Of a DNA stretch of 64,000 nt, positions 2,294-39,880 are shown piece by piece. The number at the start of each line of letters is the position of its first letter. Position 1 is the first letter of the stretch. Source of the DNA: Gammaproteobacteria bacterium (GTDB taxonomy: Bacteria; Pseudomonadota; Gammaproteobacteria; GRL18); NCBI GenBank assembly GCA_015488755.1, contig WFNB01000025.1, positions 745 to 64,744 on the forward strand. The letters are read 5' to 3'. Under the pieces are notes generated by a model that was not told the origin of the DNA, searched no databases, and saw nothing but the letters and a program-made list of their open reading frames with translations. The translations under genes were made by a program, and so were the position numbers.

Positions 2294-3461
2294 AAATGGC
2301 GTTGTTTTTTTAAAAAACACTGGGATATCTCAAGCCTCAGGTGCATTGCTGTGGACGGGTAAACATATTATTACCGCAGCACATTTTTTTGATGAGGTTG
2401 ATGATCTCGATAATATTACTATTGGCTTTAATAGTGAGCTTAGTCTTTTGGCAGCACAGATTGCTAATGTTACTATTCATCCGGGCTGGGAGGCTGATCC
2501 TAATAACTTTAATCATGATATTGCTATTATTGAACTCAAAGCAGAGGTCGATACAAGGATCAGTCGCTATCAAATTTATCGTGATTTTAATGAATTTGAT
2601 ACTGTTTTTACGAGAGTGGGCTATAGCAATACGATTAATCCACTCACGGGAACTCAAATAGGAACGAATAAAGTTTTTCATTCAGGTAGCAATCAATATG
2701 ATGTAACAACCGATAAACTGGATAATGTTTTAAATAAAAGTATTCTTAGTGATATGCAACTGAGCTACGACTTTGATGATGGTAGTCCTGAGCATGATGC
2801 CTATGGGCAAGTGCTGAACTTGCATGATACTGGAACGGGGAGTGAAGAAGTGTTCAGTCGGCCAGGAGATTCTGGTGGCCCAGCCTTTATTGATGATAAA
2901 ATTGCCGGTATTGCCAGTTATATTTTCCGTTACGAAAGTGCTACGATTGACCCAGATATTACCTCAGAAGTGGATTCTAGTTATGGAGAACTTGCTTCAG
3001 ATACACGAGTGGCAAAATATGCCGATTGGATAGATAAAACGGTTCTAGGAAATGATTACATACAACGGGTTCCAACGACTATTGAGCAGGTTGATTTGTA
3101 TCCAGTTGAAGTGAATAACCAGACCAGTATTAATTATTTTTTATTATCAATTAATAAGGCACTGGTCGTTGATAGTCGTGTTCACTATGAAACAGTCGAT
3201 GGCTCAGCTATTGCTGGCAGTGATTATATTGCGACTTCTGGGACGGCAGTGATTCCAGCAGGGCAATTATCGGTAGCGATTGGAGTGCAAATTATAGGTG
3301 ATACGCAAAGTGAGCCTGATGAGAACTTTTTTCTTCGGATCACCGATCCTCAAGGGGCTATTTTTCCTGACGGTGTGACCGAACTATTGGCAGAGCATAC
3401 TATTATTGATAATGATTCGTTGACACCATCCCCTCTGATTTCAGCCGATATTATTGTATAA
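2280..3461 (+). CDS. Trypsin-like (S1) serine protease with C-terminal Calx-beta domain
   Basis: Catalytic triad contexts TAAHF, DIAII and GDSGGP. C-terminal VHYETVDGSAIAGSDY...DENFFLRIT Calx-beta pattern. ATG 2280 overlaps the upstream gene end by 14 nt. Confidence 0.8.
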   Translation: MILAENGVVFLKNTGISQASGALLWTGKHIITAAHFFDEVDDLDNITIGFNSELSLLAAQIANVTIHPGWEADPNNFNHDIAIIELKAEVDTRISRYQIYRDFNEFDTVFTRVGYSNTINPLTGTQIGTNKVFHSGSNQYDVTTDKLDNVLNKSILSDMQLSYDFDDGSPEHDAYGQVLNLHDTGTGSEEVFSRPGDSGGPAFIDDKIAGIASYIFRYESATIDPDITSEVDSSYGELASDTRVAKYADWIDKTVLGNDYIQRVPTTIEQVDLYPVEVNNQTSINYFLLSINKALVVDSRVHYETVDGSAIAGSDYIATSGTAVIPAGQLSVAIGVQIIGDTQSEPDENFFLRITDPQGAIFPDGVTELLAEHTIIDNDSLTPSPLISADIIV

Positions 3462-9275: not shown

Positions 9276-9923
9276 TTAAATCATGTCAAATGAAGTATCT
9301 ATTGGTGTCTCGTGAGAGCCAACAATACTGATTTCTTCATAAGGCGTGTTATAGATATAATGGCTTGGATCTGAATCATTGCCAGAGTCATTGTGGTTAT
9401 TATTGGCATTATTATCGTTGCCTGAATCATTATGATTGCCATTATTATCATTGCCATTATTATCATTGCCATTATTATCATTGCCATTATTATTATTGCC
9501 TGAATCATTATGATTATTTAATAAATCATCAGCATCTCTAATACGAGTAGTTAAAAAATCGTTATCAAGATTGTTTCGGGCACTAGATAAAATCTCATGT
9601 TGCAATTCATCTAGAGATAGTCCGGTTGCTCGTGCTGTCCATGCAGCTAAACCATCATCACTGGGTGCTCGTCCCAATGAATTACTAAATATAAAAGAAA
9701 CCATCTCCTCATCATTTTTGTCGCCATAAATTGCTGAACTTTCAGTGGATGATAGCATCTCATGTAATATATTGACTTCTGCGTCATCACTAGACAAGCC
9801 TGAGTTAAGCTTGGTTTCATACCGGCTTGCCCATGCATTTAGGGCTGAGGTTGATGAAACAGGACGTGCAAAAGCAGCTTGAAATAATTCTGAAATAACT
9901 TCTTCATTGTGGGTAAATGCCAT
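9276..9923 (-). CDS. DUF4214-domain protein with Asn/Asp/Gly-rich tandem repeat region
   Basis: Two DUF4214-like blocks (FQAAFARPVSS...LNAWASRY and SNSLGRAPSDDGLAAWTA) followed by (GNDNN)n. No signal peptide. Confidence 0.6.
   Translation of the reverse strand: MAFTHNEEVISELFQAAFARPVSSTSALNAWASRYETKLNSGLSSDDAEVNILHEMLSSTESSAIYGDKNDEEMVSFIFSNSLGRAPSDDGLAAWTARATGLSLDELQHEILSSARNNLDNDFLTTRIRDADDLLNNHNDSGNNNNGNDNNGNDNNGNDNNGNHNDSGNDNNANNNHNDSGNDSDPSHYIYNTPYEEISIVGSHETPIDTSFDMI
9435..9494. repeat. 15-bp in-frame tandem repeat (4 units) inside the DUF4214 gene
   Basis: ATTGCCATTATTATC repeated four times head-to-tail. It encodes the GNDNN units on the minus strand. Confidence 0.9.
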
Positions 9924-9975
9924 AGTTGTATTCTCTCTATAATAATTAATTTAACTCTAGTGGTTCGTTCACGTT

Positions 9976-10128
9976 CATAGCTTGGTACTTAAGCATGTCT
10001 GAGGCAGGATAACTCTGTATTTACTACGCAAGACGCCGTAAATCCATCCCTGGAGGCTTTATTGCCACATCCATGTGGCAAAAACTTCCTCCGTAAACAC
10101 AGAGTTATCTTTAAGTACCTATGTATGA
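9976..10128 (+). mobile_element. MITE-like structured element, copy A
   Basis: About 153 bp with terminal inverted repeats ending in GGTACTTAAG / CTTAAGTACC. Flanked by the 9-nt direct repeat GTTCACGTT (9967-9975 and 10129-10137). Near-identical to 31037-31189. Confidence 0.8.
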
Positions 10129-10289
10129 GTTCACGTTAAATAGGATAACTATAAATTCTTAAGAGAACATTAAGAGGATTATATGGTGCGTAAAACTGTG
10201 AACAAGTTCACTGCTTTAAATTTATGGTAGATTTATGGCTAGGAGCAAAATGAATTGAGAAAAGAAGAAAAAGAATAAGGCCTATAGAG

Positions 10290-23759: not shown

Positions 23760-23769
23760 TAAGATCCTA

Positions 23770-23843
23770 CTTCTACTACAAATACAGGCTAATCAACAGG
23801 TTTAATTTGTTTTCAAGATCATTTTATTCAGAGTTCAGATTAA
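23770..23843 (+). repeat. Truncated right-hand portion of the structured element family (copy D)
   Basis: About 85% identical by eye to 37311-37386 (CTTCTaCtACAAATACAGGCtAATCAA...TTTTCAAGATCATtTTATTCAGAgTTCAGATTAA). The left arm is absent. Confidence 0.65.
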
Positions 23844-29987: not shown

Positions 29988-31026
29988 ACCAGAACAACTG
30001 CGTAACGATCTTAAGGCCAGACAGTATCCTGTCTATCTGGTCTGTGGTGATGAGCCTTTACAACATAAAGAAGCCTGTGATATGTTGCGTAAAGCCGCTC
30101 ATTATTATGGTTATGAAGAGCGTGAAATCTATACTGCAGATGCAAAATTTAACTGGTCTGCTCTGTCTTCTATAGCCAATGAATTATCATTATTTGCCAG
30201 CAAAAAACTTATTGAACTGTATTTGCCAACGGGCAAACCATCAGATAAGGGGCTTGCCCTAAGCCATTATTGCGAACATTTACCAGAAGATACCCTCTTG
30301 TTGATTATGGCTCCCAAAATAGAGGCGGCAACAAGGAAATCTAAATGGTATAAAGCCTTAGAACGGGTGGCAGGTATTATTACTGTTTGGCCTATTGAGG
30401 GGTATCACTTAAACCAATGGTTACAGCGGCGTTTATTAAGCAAGGGATTAATGACCACACAGGATGCTATCGAGTTGATTAATGATCGCATTGAGGGTAA
30501 TTTACTGGCAGGGGATCAAGAAATTGAAAAGCTCAGTCTATTATACTCACCTGCTAAGGGTGAAGAGAATGTACATCTAGACTATGAGCAAGTGGCTGAT
30601 GCCGTTTCTGATAGTGCTCGTTATAATGTCTTTGAATTGTTTGATTGTGCCTTGTCAGGGGATTTAAAACGAGCTTCAAGAATACTCTATGGCCTGCAAC
30701 GTGAAGAGGTATCTATTATACTCATCTTGTCTCTATTTGCTAAGGAAGTACGGTTATTGGCAAAAATGTCAGCCGTGCTGGAGTCTATGGAACAAACTAG
30801 GCAGGTAAAAAATATCGACTTAGCAATGAAAGGTGTTTATATCTTCCCCAAAAGAAAATCACTGATTGCCCAAGCATTGCGTACCAGTCGAGCTGAGCAT
30901 TGGCAACAATTACTTAAACAACTGTTGATGGCGGATAAGTTTTCTAAGGGGGCACAGCTTGGTGATCCTTGGGCTGAGATGCAACTTATTTTATCGGCAG
31001 TCGCAGGTAAAACGTACTTAATTTGA
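29977..31026 (+). CDS. holA: DNA polymerase III subunit delta
   Basis: PEQLRNDLK...YLVCGDEPL N-terminus resembles HolA. Conserved leuS-lptE-holA synteny. TTG start. Confidence 0.85.
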   Translation: MQIKPEQLRNDLKARQYPVYLVCGDEPLQHKEACDMLRKAAHYYGYEEREIYTADAKFNWSALSSIANELSLFASKKLIELYLPTGKPSDKGLALSHYCEHLPEDTLLLIMAPKIEAATRKSKWYKALERVAGIITVWPIEGYHLNQWLQRRLLSKGLMTTQDAIELINDRIEGNLLAGDQEIEKLSLLYSPAKGEENVHLDYEQVADAVSDSARYNVFELFDCALSGDLKRASRILYGLQREEVSIILILSLFAKEVRLLAKMSAVLESMEQTRQVKNIDLAMKGVYIFPKRKSLIAQALRTSRAEHWQQLLKQLLMADKFSKGAQLGDPWAEMQLILSAVAGKTYLI

Positions 31027-31036
31027 TAAGCATCAT

Positions 31037-31189
31037 GCATAGGTAGGTACTTAAGCATGTCTGAGGCAGGATAACTCTGTATTTACTACGCAAGACGCCG
31101 TAAATCCATCCTTGGAGGCTTTATTGCCACATCCATGTGGCAAAAACTTCCTCCGTAAACACAGAGTTATCCTTAAGTACCTACGTATG
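31037..31189 (+). mobile_element. MITE-like structured element, copy B
   Basis: Near-identical to 9976-10128. Flanked by the direct repeat AAGCATCAT (31028-31036 and 31190-31198). About 19-bp imperfect terminal inverted repeats. Confidence 0.8.
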
Positions 31190-31237
31190 AAGCATCATTA
31201 ATTATTTTGACAGATAGAATAAACAATGGAATAAACA

Positions 31238-34896: not shown

Positions 34897-37197
34897 GTGA
34901 TAGCAGAGAATCGTGTGCCAAAAACTAATAAAGAAAATACAGTAGCAGTAAAGCCTAAACAAACCATTGTGCAAGTGGCTGTACCAACACCATTGCGCCG
35001 AAAATTTGATTATCTATTAGCCAGCGAAGATGATCATGAGCGTATACAAGTAGGAATTAGAGTCTTAGTTCCTTTTGGACGAACTACTAAAATTGCCATT
35101 GTTTTAGGTCTGAGTGAGCATAGTGATGTACCTGCTAATAAATTGCGACCTATTAGCAAGATCCTTGATAAGCAAGCTATTTTGCCGCTTGATATTATTA
35201 AATTGCTTAATTGGGTGGCTAGATATTATCAACATCCTATTGGTGAAGTGTTTCAAACGGCGATACCGGTTCATTATCGTAAAAAAGAAATCCCTTTTGC
35301 CACTGAGGAAATACGCTATATTCTCACACAACAGGCGCTTGATAATGATTGGACGACATTAAAGCGAGCAATACGTCAATTGAGTCTATTAAAACAATTG
35401 CAAACTGTACCAAAAGGCTTAACTAAAGAGCAACTGTCTCAAAAACAAGAAGGGCAATGGCAATCAGCTCTAAAAGCGTTAATTGATAAAAAATGGGTTA
35501 AAGAGCAGGTCAGTTTGAAAGCCAAGCCTGCCTACTCTTATCTGTATGGAGAAGAGATATGCAAACACTCAGCGTTAATACTTAATGAGGAGCAAGAGCG
35601 GGCGGTAAGTGCCCTATTGGAAAAAGCGGATGAGTATCATGCCAGCTTGCTTGATGGTATTACGGGTAGTGGTAAAACAGAAGTGTATCTTAGCTTTATT
35701 GAATATCAGCTGCAACAGTCTCGACAAGTATTGGTATTAGTACCAGAAATTGGCCTTACGCCTCAATTACTTGAGCGCTTTAACGATCGTTTTAATGTCA
35801 CTATACAAAGCTTACATTCGGGCTTAAATAATACTCAGCGTATGTTGGTCTGGCAACAGGTAAGTGAAGGAAAAGTGCGTATTCTTATTGGTACACGCTC
35901 TGCCGTATTTACTCCCATGCCAGATTTGGGGGCTATTCTTATTGATGAAGAACATGATTTATCTTTTAAACAGCAAGATGGTATTCGTTACTCAGCTAAA
36001 GATATTGCCTTAGTACGGGCAAATAACGCTGGCGTACCCATTATTTTAGGCAGTGCAACCCCGTCAATGGAATCGTTATTTTTATGTCAGCAAGGGAAAA
36101 TGTCACATTATAAACTACGTCAACGAGCCGGTAAGGCAAAGCCTCCCCAAGTACATCTTCTTGATGTTCGAGGGCAATATCTGCAACATGGCTTAAGTCA
36201 AACCTTAATTAATCTAATGAAACAGCATTTAGAAAAAAATAATCAAGTGCTACTGTTTCAAAATAGACGAGGCTATTCACCGGTTTTATTATGCAATAAA
36301 TGTGGCTGGATCAGTCATTGTCATCGTTGTGATGCGAAATTAACCTATCATCGTCAACACCATCGTCTGCGTTGTCACCATTGCCAAGTGGAACAGGAAT
36401 TACCAGCACATTGCCCAGAATGTGCCCATGTTGAGCTATCCTATTTAGGTATAGGTACGGAACGGGTAGAAAAAACAGTCCGTGAACTGTTTCCAGAAGT
36501 GGAAATTGTTCGTATTGATCGTGATACTACGCAACGTAAAGGTACTTTAGAATCAATGCTGGAGCGAGTTAAAGATGGACAACAGCAAATATTAATTGGT
36601 ACCCAAATGCTGGCTAAGGGACATCATTTTCCCAACGTGACATTAGTGGCCATTTTAGATATTGATCAAGGGCTCTATTCCATTGATTTTCGAGCACCAG
36701 AGCGATTAGCACAATTAATTACTCAAGTTTCTGGTCGAGCGGGTCGGGCAGAGAAAAAAGGGCAGGTGGTTTTGCAAACTTCACATCCAGAAGATGAAAC
36801 CCTCAATACCTTGTTAAATGAGGGCTATATGGGCTTTGCGCAAAAAGCACTCGCTGAGCGTAAAGAATTATTATTACCACCTTATGCTTATCAAGCATTG
36901 ATCCGTGCTGAGGCGAACAAAACAAGTGATTATCAAAAATTTCTTGATGCTTGTTTTCAAGTAATGAATCAGATTAAAAATACCTTATTACAGGGAAATG
37001 ATAGTCAGTTTTTAGGTCCTGTGCCAGCACCAATGGAAAAAAAAGCAGGTAAGTTCAGAGGCCAATTGCTTGTCCAATCGGTGCAGAGAAAAAATTTACA
37101 CAGAATTTTGCATGGCCTTATTCAAACAGTAGAAACAAATAAGATGGCTCAAAGAGTGCGCTGGTCTATTGATATTGACCCACAAGATTTGTATTAA
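34897..37197 (+). CDS. priA: Primosomal protein N-prime (replication restart helicase PriA)
   Basis: VAVPTPLRRKFDYL N-terminus, GITGSGKTEVY Walker A, DEEHD, and a Cys-rich zinc-binding insert. Start uncertain (GTG 34897 or GTG 34969). Confidence 0.93.
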   Translation: MIAENRVPKTNKENTVAVKPKQTIVQVAVPTPLRRKFDYLLASEDDHERIQVGIRVLVPFGRTTKIAIVLGLSEHSDVPANKLRPISKILDKQAILPLDIIKLLNWVARYYQHPIGEVFQTAIPVHYRKKEIPFATEEIRYILTQQALDNDWTTLKRAIRQLSLLKQLQTVPKGLTKEQLSQKQEGQWQSALKALIDKKWVKEQVSLKAKPAYSYLYGEEICKHSALILNEEQERAVSALLEKADEYHASLLDGITGSGKTEVYLSFIEYQLQQSRQVLVLVPEIGLTPQLLERFNDRFNVTIQSLHSGLNNTQRMLVWQQVSEGKVRILIGTRSAVFTPMPDLGAILIDEEHDLSFKQQDGIRYSAKDIALVRANNAGVPIILGSATPSMESLFLCQQGKMSHYKLRQRAGKAKPPQVHLLDVRGQYLQHGLSQTLINLMKQHLEKNNQVLLFQNRRGYSPVLLCNKCGWISHCHRCDAKLTYHRQHHRLRCHHCQVEQELPAHCPECAHVELSYLGIGTERVEKTVRELFPEVEIVRIDRDTTQRKGTLESMLERVKDGQQQILIGTQMLAKGHHFPNVTLVAILDIDQGLYSIDFRAPERLAQLITQVSGRAGRAEKKGQVVLQTSHPEDETLNTLLNEGYMGFAQKALAERKELLLPPYAYQALIRAEANKTSDYQKFLDACFQVMNQIKNTLLQGNDSQFLGPVPAPMEKKAGKFRGQLLVQSVQRKNLHRILHGLIQTVETNKMAQRVRWSIDIDPQDLY

Positions 37198-37227
37198 ATA
37201 AGCTGAGTTCCGGATGACAGCATAAGT

Positions 37228-37386
37228 AACGTATTGATTAGCCTGTATTTGTTACAGAAGTCACCGTAAATACCTCCCTGTAGGCTTCACTTTGGCATCC
37301 ATGCCAAAGAGACTTCTTCCACAAATACAGGCCAATCAATATGTTAAATTTATTTTCAAGATCATCTTATTCAGAATTCAGATTAA
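37228..37386 (+). repeat. Diverged member of the structured element family (copy C) with 3' tail
   Basis: About 25-bp inverted termini AACGTATTGATTAGCCTGTATTTGT / ACAAATACAGGCCAATCAATATGTT. Shares the core CCGTAAAT.C.TCCCTG.AGGCTT and the CATCCATG apical loop with copies A and B. The tail is shared with 23770-23843. Confidence 0.7.
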
Positions 37387-37485
37387 ATAAGCTCAAATGT
37401 ATTTAATTCATATTTTTGTTGATATTTTTTTATAAAATCACTAAAATCGCGGGTAATTTTCTATGCCTATCAGCACTTGATTAGA

Positions 37486-37532
37486 ATTTATTTGGCTAAG
37501 CATTTATTTGGCTAAGCATTTATCCAGCTAAG
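37486..37532. repeat. 16-bp tandem repeat (about 3 units) in the EF-G paralogue upstream region
   Basis: ATTTATTTGGCTAAGC twice, then ATTTATCCAGCTAAG. Confidence 0.85.
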
Positions 37533-39823: not shown

Positions 39824-39850
39824 GGCCGGTCATTGACTGGCCTTTTTTTA
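39824..39850 (+). terminator. Rho-independent terminator after the EF-G paralogue
   Basis: GGCCGGTC-ATT-GACTGGCC stem (one G-U pair) followed by TTTTTTTA. Confidence 0.8.
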
Positions 39851-39880
39851 TTTAAGATTAAGTATCTAGGAAATTAACCA

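Follow-up and report, generated by a model that had tools for sequence, protein, structure and literature searches.

A transposon-like palindromic repeat behind priA, its conserved centre and its probable relationship to YPAL repeats and the TwoAYGGAY motif

Directly behind the stop codon of priA, a 64,000-nucleotide stretch of gammaproteobacterial DNA (contig WFNB01000025.1 of assembly GCA_015488755.1, positions 745 to 64,744; the window in the following) contains a long palindromic repeat, here called copy C. It had originally been predicted, from the sequence alone, to be a diverged member of a family with covarying stems around a conserved, unpaired core. This observation is real and lies far beyond chance, and the reasoning about a functional centre is sound; the element is structured, it is of no new kind, and its family has already been described. 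Copy C is very probably a MITE (a miniature transposable element with inverted repeats) of the YPAL type. Our preferred reading, to which we assign a probability of about 0.6, is that this MITE carries a variant of the TwoAYGGAY RNA motif as a cassette that likely serves as a two-site module for a dimeric RNA-binding protein, with CsrA/RsmA as the leading candidate.

Boundaries and mobility of copy C and its relatives

Copy C is inserted at the stop codon of priA and has duplicated 9 bp of its target. The priA gene (open reading frame (ORF) 34897-37197) encodes a protein with PriA Pfam domains that is 96% identical to that of a relative. Its stop codon falls within the left duplication; the layout of the duplicated junction recurs in at least 15 sister copies. 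The inner palindrome begins 30 nt past the stop codon and comprises 120 nt, with arms of 36 nt that are 86% complementary and 48 nt between them; GTAAC starts at 37226 and GTTAA ends at 37347. It is part of a unit of 180 bp, the outer repeats of which match at 11 of 15 positions in copy C and are near-perfect over 16-19 bp in its sister copies. The originally predicted interval 37228-37386 captured the inner hairpin and missed the left outer arm (37203-37226). Because the inner palindrome was taken for the whole unit, the target duplication, said to be absent, was overlooked: TTAAATAAG flanks 37203-37382 on both sides. Apart from the end of priA, the 180-bp unit does not contain any ORF of 60 or more amino acids (aa). 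The parts of copy C are:

37194..37202, no strand assigned: left target-site duplication TTAAATAAG, 9 bp, read from the sequence
37195-37197: priA stop codon TAA, within the left TTAAATAAG duplication
37203..37382, no strand assigned: complete C-type copy, very probably a MITE, 180 bp, delimited by comparison with 23 sister copies in unrelated flanks
37203..37217, plus strand: left outer terminal inverted repeat CTGAGTTCCGGATGA (family consensus CCTGAGTTCTGGATAA)
37215..37359, minus strand: sub-threshold match to RF01731 TwoAYGGAY, 39.7 bits, model positions 1-168 of 168
37227..37346, no strand assigned: inner long hairpin (copy C of the original prediction), arms 37227-37262 and 37311-37346
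37264..37287, minus strand: conserved core CCGTAAATACCTCCCTGTAGGCTT, read on the minus strand as AAGCCUACAGGGAGGUAUUUACGG
37271..37282, minus strand: small hairpin within the core, stems 37271-37274 and 37279-37282
37275-37277: loop of the in-core hairpin, TCC, GGA on the minus strand
37290..37309, minus strand: apical hairpin CTTTGGCA-TCCA-TGCCAAAG, minus-strand loop AUGGAU
37367..37382, minus strand: right outer terminal inverted repeat TTATTCAGAATTCAGA (family consensus TTATCCAGAGTTCAGG)
37383..37391, no strand assigned: right target-site duplication TTAAATAAG, from the sequence and the sister copies

The ends of the unit were revealed by an arm-specific pattern scan of the metagenome of a relative, which returned 23 C-type sister copies with unrelated flanks. 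In these, similarity begins with (AA)CCTGAGTTCTGGATAA and stops at TTATCCAGAGTTCAGG(TT), and a TTAnnTAA-like target is duplicated over 7-9 bp in the flanks, e.g., TTAGGATA, TTAAGTAA or TTAATTA. The window itself holds two further copies and a fragment, together with the unoccupied counterpart of another insertion:

9976..10128, no strand assigned: copy A, 153 bp, with A/B-type ends CATAGC..GTATGA
23769..23839, no strand assigned: fragment D, a 5'-truncated C-type copy in which the right inner and right outer arm are kept
31037..31189, no strand assigned: copy B, 153 bp, 97% identical to copy A, site empty in relatives
39850..39872, no strand assigned: site of a second C-type copy in relatives, unoccupied in the window

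Exactly three matches to the core pattern CCGTAAATNCNTCCCTGNAGGCTT lie in the window (10036, 31098 and 37264), where none is expected, and a covariance model of the family recovers only copies A, B and C, at 77, 76 and 74 bits, the next match scoring 10.7 bits. Copy A is flanked on both sides by a 9-bp duplication, GTTCACGTT (9967-9975 and 10129-10137), and copy B by AAGCATCAT (31028-31036 and 31190-31198). Fragment D, which begins 10 nt past the dnaJ stop codon, is 88% identical to the right half of copy C plus about 35 nt outside the palindrome, including its right outer arm, and it was this external similarity that gave the first sign of a unit larger than the palindrome. Copies B and C and fragment D thus lie directly behind the stop codons of the plus-strand genes holA, priA and dnaJ, respectively. 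Copy A is located between two minus-strand genes, whose transcript would therefore carry the strand that reads GGA in the loops described below.

Sister copies of copy C and the A/B subfamily have been mobile recently. Three contigs with a PriA 96% identical to that of the window share its gene order, and the spacer between holA and Aldedh measures 36 nt in these relatives vs. 211 nt in the window. These relatives, which are 96-98% identical, contain a single AAGCATTAT at the site of copy B, whereas the window has AAGCATCAT, 153 bp and again AAGCATCAT (junction read by eye, the MAFFT gap being misplaced). The single vs. the doubled sequence identifies copy B as a precise insertion with a 9-bp duplication and proves mobility. 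Copy C itself is present in all three relatives with 98% identity; no empty site was found for it among these three, all of which are occupied. The second C-type copy of the relatives is located behind the next gene (core model match L121:15047-15132, element approximately L121:15000-15180), and its junctions relative to the window are not clean.

Two differences between the window and its relatives touch the copies themselves. The HolA of the window comprises 349 aa and that of the relatives 353 aa (window 31020-31036 vs. L121:6320-6345); a 1-nt indel just ahead of copy B shifts the stop codon, which places the insertion inside the last codons of the relatives' holA. In copy C, the left outer and inner arm (37203-37263) account for six of about nine substitutions over 590 nt relative to loci L115 and L116, part of the right arm and the spacer being otherwise identical.

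The ends of the element differ between lineages. GTAACT.. termini come with 8-bp duplications in three families, CATAGSTAGGTACTTAAG with 9-bp duplications in copies A and B and one metagenome-assembled genome (MAG), and CCTGAGTTCTGGATAA with 7-9-bp duplications in the C-type copies; the centre is near-invariant throughout all types. The GTAACT.. termini with 8-bp duplications may be IS66-like; neither an IS66 nor any other transposase was found. One copy is a hybrid (L145:2880-3170) with a left end of the A/B type, CATAGCTAGGTACTTAAG, and a right end of the C type, TTATCCAGAGTTCAAG, which suggests recombination between subfamilies at the common GGATAACT segment. Another C-type copy (L136:780-1010, JGI metagenome 3300028030) has its central hairpin and core inverted relative to the outer arms, each side being the reverse complement of the arm that is usually found on the other side; this looks like arm-to-arm recombination that turned the centre around. 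With ends that differ around a near-invariant centre, and with hybrid and flipped copies, the centre behaves as a cassette of MITEs with varied ends.

Structure and strand of the conserved centre

An exact-pattern scan with CCGTAAATNNNTCCNTGNAGGCTT, performed with one genome per species, retrieved at least 114 stretches that carry the core pattern, and all titled records among them are Gammaproteobacteria. The taxa comprise Methylococcaceae, Stenotrophomonas, Microbulbifer, Marinobacter, Alishewanella, Idiomarina, Vibrio, Pantoea, Tolumonas and many MAGs. The position of copy C just behind the priA stop codon might suggest a chance palindrome or an ordinary priA terminator, an explanation that is practically ruled out by a fold z-score of -12, by the 74 bits obtained with the family model, by the occurrence of the core in other genomes and by sister copies in different flanks. 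As RNA, copy C folds with -52 kcal/mol (z = -12.0) on the plus strand and with -57 kcal/mol (z = -9.7) on the minus strand, and no shuffle was as stable on either.

Every copy follows the same plan, with long arms that are complementary yet lineage-specific, a near-invariant core, an apical stem of about 8 bp with variable sequence and the cap C-N-TCC-N-T-G, and a return arm. Within the window, copies A, B and C agree in the core, in the CATCCATG loop and over part of the inner arm, and the apical hairpin of copy C (CTTTGGCA/TCCA/TGCCAAAG) differs from that of copies A and B (TTGCCACA/TCCA/TGTGGCAA) by paired changes. The compensatory change and the kept core segment had both been read correctly. 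The outer arms, originally described as completely different, do differ and still pair in their outer parts, whereas the inner arm of copy C can be aligned with those of A and B (common CTGTATTT..TAC..AAG).

For counting base pairs, 83 non-redundant copies were aligned and the structure was written down by hand. In this set, 82.8% of the cells pair (63.7% in shuffles) and covariation attains a score of 0.50 (0.18 in shuffles), which none of 500 shuffles reached; the score drops to 0.10-0.20 when the partners are slid by 1-3 columns. Each pair of the apical stem is realized by three to five pair types. A covariance model (R1) built from this alignment found about 146 copies in the collected loci; 94 model-aligned copies pair in 89.9% of the cells with a covariation score of 0.65, values that lean towards the structure of the model itself. 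The covariation originally expected for a larger copy set is therefore present. The core, in contrast to its description as unpaired, holds a hairpin of 4 bp (37271-37274 with 37279-37282; U-N1-C-N2 with U-G-N4-A) and a closing helix of 3 bp, both with compensatory changes. Among the 94 copies, the N1-N4 pair is AU in 68, CG in 22, GC in one and UA in one, the U-A pair is UA in 86, CG in five and AU in one, and neither is ever unpaired. The closing helix GCC/GGC is replaced by GCU/AGC in Alishewanella. At the base of the apical stem, inspection suggests a recurrent single G.A opposition (A.A in copy C), a pair that lies outside the counted structure.

Structural selection acts on the complement of the strand originally described. 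On the strand originally described, mismatches in the arms are A.C in 164 and G.T in 62 cases; counted once per arm cluster (65 clusters), A.C exceeds G.T in 41 and the reverse applies in 11 (p = 3.6e-5), with the A.C excess residing mostly in the 30 bp closest to the core. As A.C on one strand corresponds to G.U on the other, it is the complement that tolerates wobble pairs. A better fold is obtained for the minus strand in 83 of 98 copies, an advantage to which the constant core contributes part, and the TwoAYGGAY match of copy C also lies on the minus strand.

On the complement, the core reads UACA-N-GGA-N-GUA and the apical loop C-A-N-GGA-N-G, such that both conserved motifs take the form CANGGANG in hairpin loops closed by C-G, 23-24 nt apart. 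In copy C, these are UACAGGGAGGUA and GGCAUGGAUGCC; here the distance between the GGA motifs is 23 nt, and among 106 copies it amounts to 23-24 nt in 103. For comparison, a dimer of CsrA spans paired sites at distances of 10-60 nt. The CsrA consensus derived by systematic evolution of ligands by exponential enrichment (SELEX) is RUACARGGAUGU, in which ACA and GGA are invariant and the loop of a hairpin holds GGA (PMC4347634). Of 118 copies, 95 contain UACA.GGA and 33 the complete UACARGGAUGU, and it is at the N positions of CANGGANG that the core varies.

The same strand connects copy C with a catalogued RNA motif. At gathering thresholds, Rfam left both the window and 21 other loci without a family, and the relationships to TwoAYGGAY and Ysr224 emerged in a permissive scan only. 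The permissive scan aligned the minus strand of copy C with TwoAYGGAY (RF01731) at 39.7 bits (E ~3e-5; gathering score 43), with matching CAUGGAUG, second GGA, UUUACGG and CGUC and with about 11 nt deleted from the second hairpin; copy A did not give a TwoAYGGAY match. The minus-strand fold of copy C consists of a long P1 and two hairpins with a shortened P2. Its loop 1, AUGGAU, fits AYGGAY, and loop 2, AGGGAG, keeps GGA with differing Y positions; family-wide the loops read A-N-GGA-N. The relationship rests on the score of copy C together with the common architecture and junction nucleotides. TwoAYGGAY has been described from Clostridia, Gammaproteobacteria and the human gut, with no mention of mobility, as a pair of AYGGAY loops above a closing stem P1 that is often very long (Weinberg et al. 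2010, PMC2864571). Two strong CsrA-motif matches were noted in it, leading to the prediction of a CsrA-sequestering RNA, and tandem G.A pairs in one stem were mentioned (Gardner and Eldai 2015, PMC4333381). RF01731 is a member of Rfam clan CL00106, the clan of CsrB. In the original TwoAYGGAY seed (Psychromonas ingrahamii NC_008709; Weinberg 2010), several flanks are alike well outside the motif, and these seed examples may also be copies of repeat elements.

A second link leads to the YPAL repeat of Yersinia, which De Gregorio et al. reportedly described in 2006. The family model R1 scores 72.7 bits on a Yersinia copy that itself reaches 133.9 bits with Rfam Ysr224 (RF02770); on copies C and A, the Ysr224 model yields 17.9 and 19.9 bits, respectively, at a threshold of 70. 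The reverse complement of the 168-nt RU-2 of Y. pestis (PMC2759123) contains gacgCCGTAAATACATCCATGTAGGCTcgagccgcgCCATCCTTGGcgcggac, and its CCGTAAATACATCCATGTAGGCT followed by a hairpin is the shared central module. RU-2 and YPAL denote one and the same repeat, described as MITE-like and as occurring in Yersinia and Erwinia (Delihas, PMC2759123); YPALs measure 167-168 bp, have internal inverted repeats and duplications of 3-26 bp (Delihas, PMC2229807). With YPAL/RU-2, Ysr224 and the sub-threshold TwoAYGGAY match, the repeat belongs among described families, an outcome that the original proposal had itself named as refuting it. We consider the family relationship of copy C to both TwoAYGGAY and YPAL highly probable.

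Several features of individual copies deserve mention in their own right. In Alishewanella tabrizica (L093:3640-4320), three tandem 177-nt units with one copy each precede a fourth copy that is oriented oppositely; the array sits in a 1-kb spacer between two plus-strand ORFs, and a promoter and terminator scan around it revealed nothing convincing. The same 25-nt insertion, CACCCCAAGAGTACTTCCTTCGGGC, occurs in the core between CCG and TGAAT at L130:5720-5900, L132:165-340 and L134 (minus strand, approximately 3200-3400). The apical loop CATCCATG is interrupted by other short palindromes in L014, L021, L028, L042 and L102 and appears to be a preferred target of other small repeats. No match to the 56-nt consensus was found in E. 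coli chromosomes. Conjugative plasmids from E. coli, Klebsiella, Citrobacter and Shigella, among them NZ_CP067312 and NZ_CP055058, carry unannotated YPAL-like copies that are about 75% identical to RU-2, and these provide a plausible route for spread between species. Six of ten close pairs of neighbouring copies are convergent, too few to mean anything.

Possible roles of the centre

According to our preferred reading, copy C would be a non-autonomous DNA transposon of a family spread through Gammaproteobacteria, of which YPAL/RU-2 is a described member. A transposase encoded elsewhere would recognize the outer terminal repeats, which vary by subfamily. The cassette common to all subfamilies would consist of the inner long stem that closes a three-way junction with two short hairpins, and it may be regarded as a TwoAYGGAY variant without the lower half of one stem. 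When transcribed, the GGA strand would provide two sites for a dimeric RNA-binding protein, among which CsrA/RsmA ranks first because of the fit to the SELEX consensus. CsrA binding as such is a tentative prediction from that fit and is at present the less likely outcome. The original argument, that covarying stems around a conserved segment indicate function in a way that terminal repeats would not explain, holds insofar as the large copy set, the varying ends and the catalogued RNA motif are concerned; the terminal repeats, duplications and empty site, on the other hand, make the element a transposon-like MITE.

Several observations weigh against the proposed module. Orientation relative to flanking genes is near random across taxa (23 same, 21 opposite) and close to random in the genome of the relative (10 vs. 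5), so that there is no sign of preferential transcription of the GGA strand. Copies B and C and fragment D follow plus-strand genes, read-through from which yields the UCC strand, and the Yersinia small RNA (sRNA) Ysr224 likewise corresponds to the UCC strand. Scans in and around copy C did not detect any promoter-like or terminator-like site inside the element, and no transposase with matching ends came to light, as searches of the collected loci with the end sequences gave only small copies. Only copy C comes near the TwoAYGGAY threshold; none of 21 loci scanned at the gathering threshold matches this family, and eight other loci are without a match at E <= 1. The conserved UUUACGG and AAG are left unexplained by CsrA. 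Furthermore, template switching between the arms of a quasi-palindrome can restore pairing without selection on RNA, and covariation in inverted-repeat DNA alone cannot prove RNA function.

The main rival explanation regards the centre as a cis-acting signal for propagation of the element, in which the folded strand, DNA or RNA, would offer two identical loops to a dimeric transposition or replication protein. It accounts equally well for a conserved centre with changing ends, since selection on 'master' copies would keep the centre across subfamilies that differ in ends and duplication lengths. It also agrees with the random orientation relative to genes, with the apical loop as a hot spot for other insertions and with the copy whose centre is flipped between the arms (L136); the wobble asymmetry marks one single strand in this case as well, G.T being tolerated in DNA hairpins too. 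However, clean 8-9-bp duplications and defined terminal repeats are typical of DDE transposases, which need the ends alone, neither an HUH/Y1 transposase nor another candidate gene was seen beside any copy, and a signal of this kind would not predict so exact a fit to the CsrA SELEX consensus, down to the positions that vary. On balance, we regard a propagation signal as unlikely.

Alternatively, the repeat could be a structural passenger only, acting as a hairpin in the 3' untranslated region (UTR) that stabilizes mRNA, is processed or terminates transcription, as considered for ERIC and YPAL, with loops that do not have a specific ligand. The positions of copies B and C and fragment D behind holA, priA and dnaJ would fit, as would the very stable folds (-52 to -59 kcal/mol) and the report that YPALs share transcripts with upstream genes and may influence the stability of these (PMC2229807). 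Such a role would leave unexplained why a 24-nt centre is near-invariant across bacterial orders and carries two identical loop motifs at a fixed spacing, and no U-tract terminator was detected; as a general explanation it appears quite improbable. At its own locus, copy C is nevertheless probably a passenger that adds a stable 3'-UTR hairpin to the priA transcript, because read-through from priA would give the UCC strand. An independent gene at this locus for a small RNA of the TwoAYGGAY type, which would sequester CsrA from the minus strand, is suggested by the sub-threshold minus-strand match and by the prediction of such sRNAs (Gardner and Eldai, PMC4333381). Neither a promoter-like site on the minus strand nor a terminator-like site was found at copy C, and transposon ends, a target duplication and many dispersed copies argue against a dedicated gene, which we consider very unlikely.

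The most far-reaching version of our preferred reading would make the TwoAYGGAY cassette a mobile high-affinity two-site CsrA module that is carried by MITEs with varied ends, has spread through genomes and plasmids, and whose copies act as a distributed CsrA sponge or rewire the Csr regulon, YPAL, Ysr224 and TwoAYGGAY being one element. We consider this combination doubtful. Were it true, transposition would seed CsrA sites into UTRs and antisense transcripts, just as CsrA binding, if real, would mean that a transposable element spreads binding sites of a global regulator that acts post-transcriptionally. Within the window, the finding is of little consequence, as it adds one more copy of a known small mobile repeat in a 3' UTR. 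In a wider context, three separately treated entries, the YPAL/RU-2 MITE, Rfam Ysr224 and Rfam TwoAYGGAY, appear to be one mobile family, a link that has apparently not been made before; nor did the literature search yield any paper that connects CsrA with MITEs or YPAL. The variant described here occurs in well over 100 gammaproteobacterial assemblies, where it scores below the Rfam threshold and therefore goes unannotated. The family thus offers a concrete set of sequences on which the CsrA idea can be tested, including those of well-studied Yersinia strains.

Three further observations concern the window. Between copy C and an EF-G-like gene, at 37486-37530, about three tandem repeats of the 16-nt unit ATTTATTTGGCTAAGC are located. 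Tandem 15-nt repeats (TTATCATTGCCATTA-like) at 9397-9515 lie inside the minus-strand ORF 9276-9923, the product of which has a marginal DUF4214 match just over the curated cutoff. A csrA gene is not encoded in the window.

Comparison with known systems

Three other types of element were considered and rejected. A likeness of ..ATATGTTAAAT at the right inner end to the XerD arm of dif is not kept in fragment D or in the sister copies, and the element has target duplications. The same duplications are present where an integron attC site might be assumed, the right end of which would fit GTTRRRY while the left end fails RYYYAAC. A REP/RAYT element is suggested by GTAG in CTGTAGGC; in 16 of 83 copies, however, GGAG stands in its place with a matching change in the pairing partner, and the unit is far longer than a REP, a palindrome of 20-40 bp with an invariant GTAG tag at one end.

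Among small mobile repeats, ERIC/RU-1, Correia/NEMIS, RUP and REP/REPIN resemble copy C in that they are small, non-coding, hairpin-forming, often located behind genes and associated with target duplications. Unlike in these bacterial MITEs, the centre is conserved and the ends vary by lineage, which is the reverse of the usual pattern, and GTAG in the core is not a fixed tag as in REP, since it covaries to GGAG with its pairing partner. YPAL/RU-2 shares the central module gacgCCGTAAATACATCCATGTAGGCT followed by a hairpin with an ..ATCC.. loop, long complementary arms, an intergenic multi-copy distribution and target duplications. It differs in its arms, which are unrelated to those of the window copies, and in having internal inverted repeats and 3-26 bp duplications, whereas the window copies have terminal repeats and 9-bp duplications.

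On the side of RNA, the CsrB/RsmZ sRNAs also present GGA in hairpin loops and fit the CsrA SELEX consensus, and TwoAYGGAY belongs to the same Rfam clan, CL00106. The MITE cassette differs from these sRNAs in that it offers only two sites per unit, that no promoter or terminator of its own was found, and that it is dispersed, mobile and inserted in either orientation. TwoAYGGAY itself agrees with copy C in the strand, the very long closing stem, the two hairpin loops of the form A-Y/N-GGA-Y/N, the occurrence in Gammaproteobacteria and the junction nucleotides AAG, UUUACG and CGG..CGUC. In copy C, however, the second hairpin is without its lower stem and about 11 nt shorter, which leaves UUUAC as a bulge, its loop reads AGGGAG in place of AYGGAY, and whereas TwoAYGGAY has been described as an RNA with no mention of terminal repeats or duplications, the family of copy C has both.

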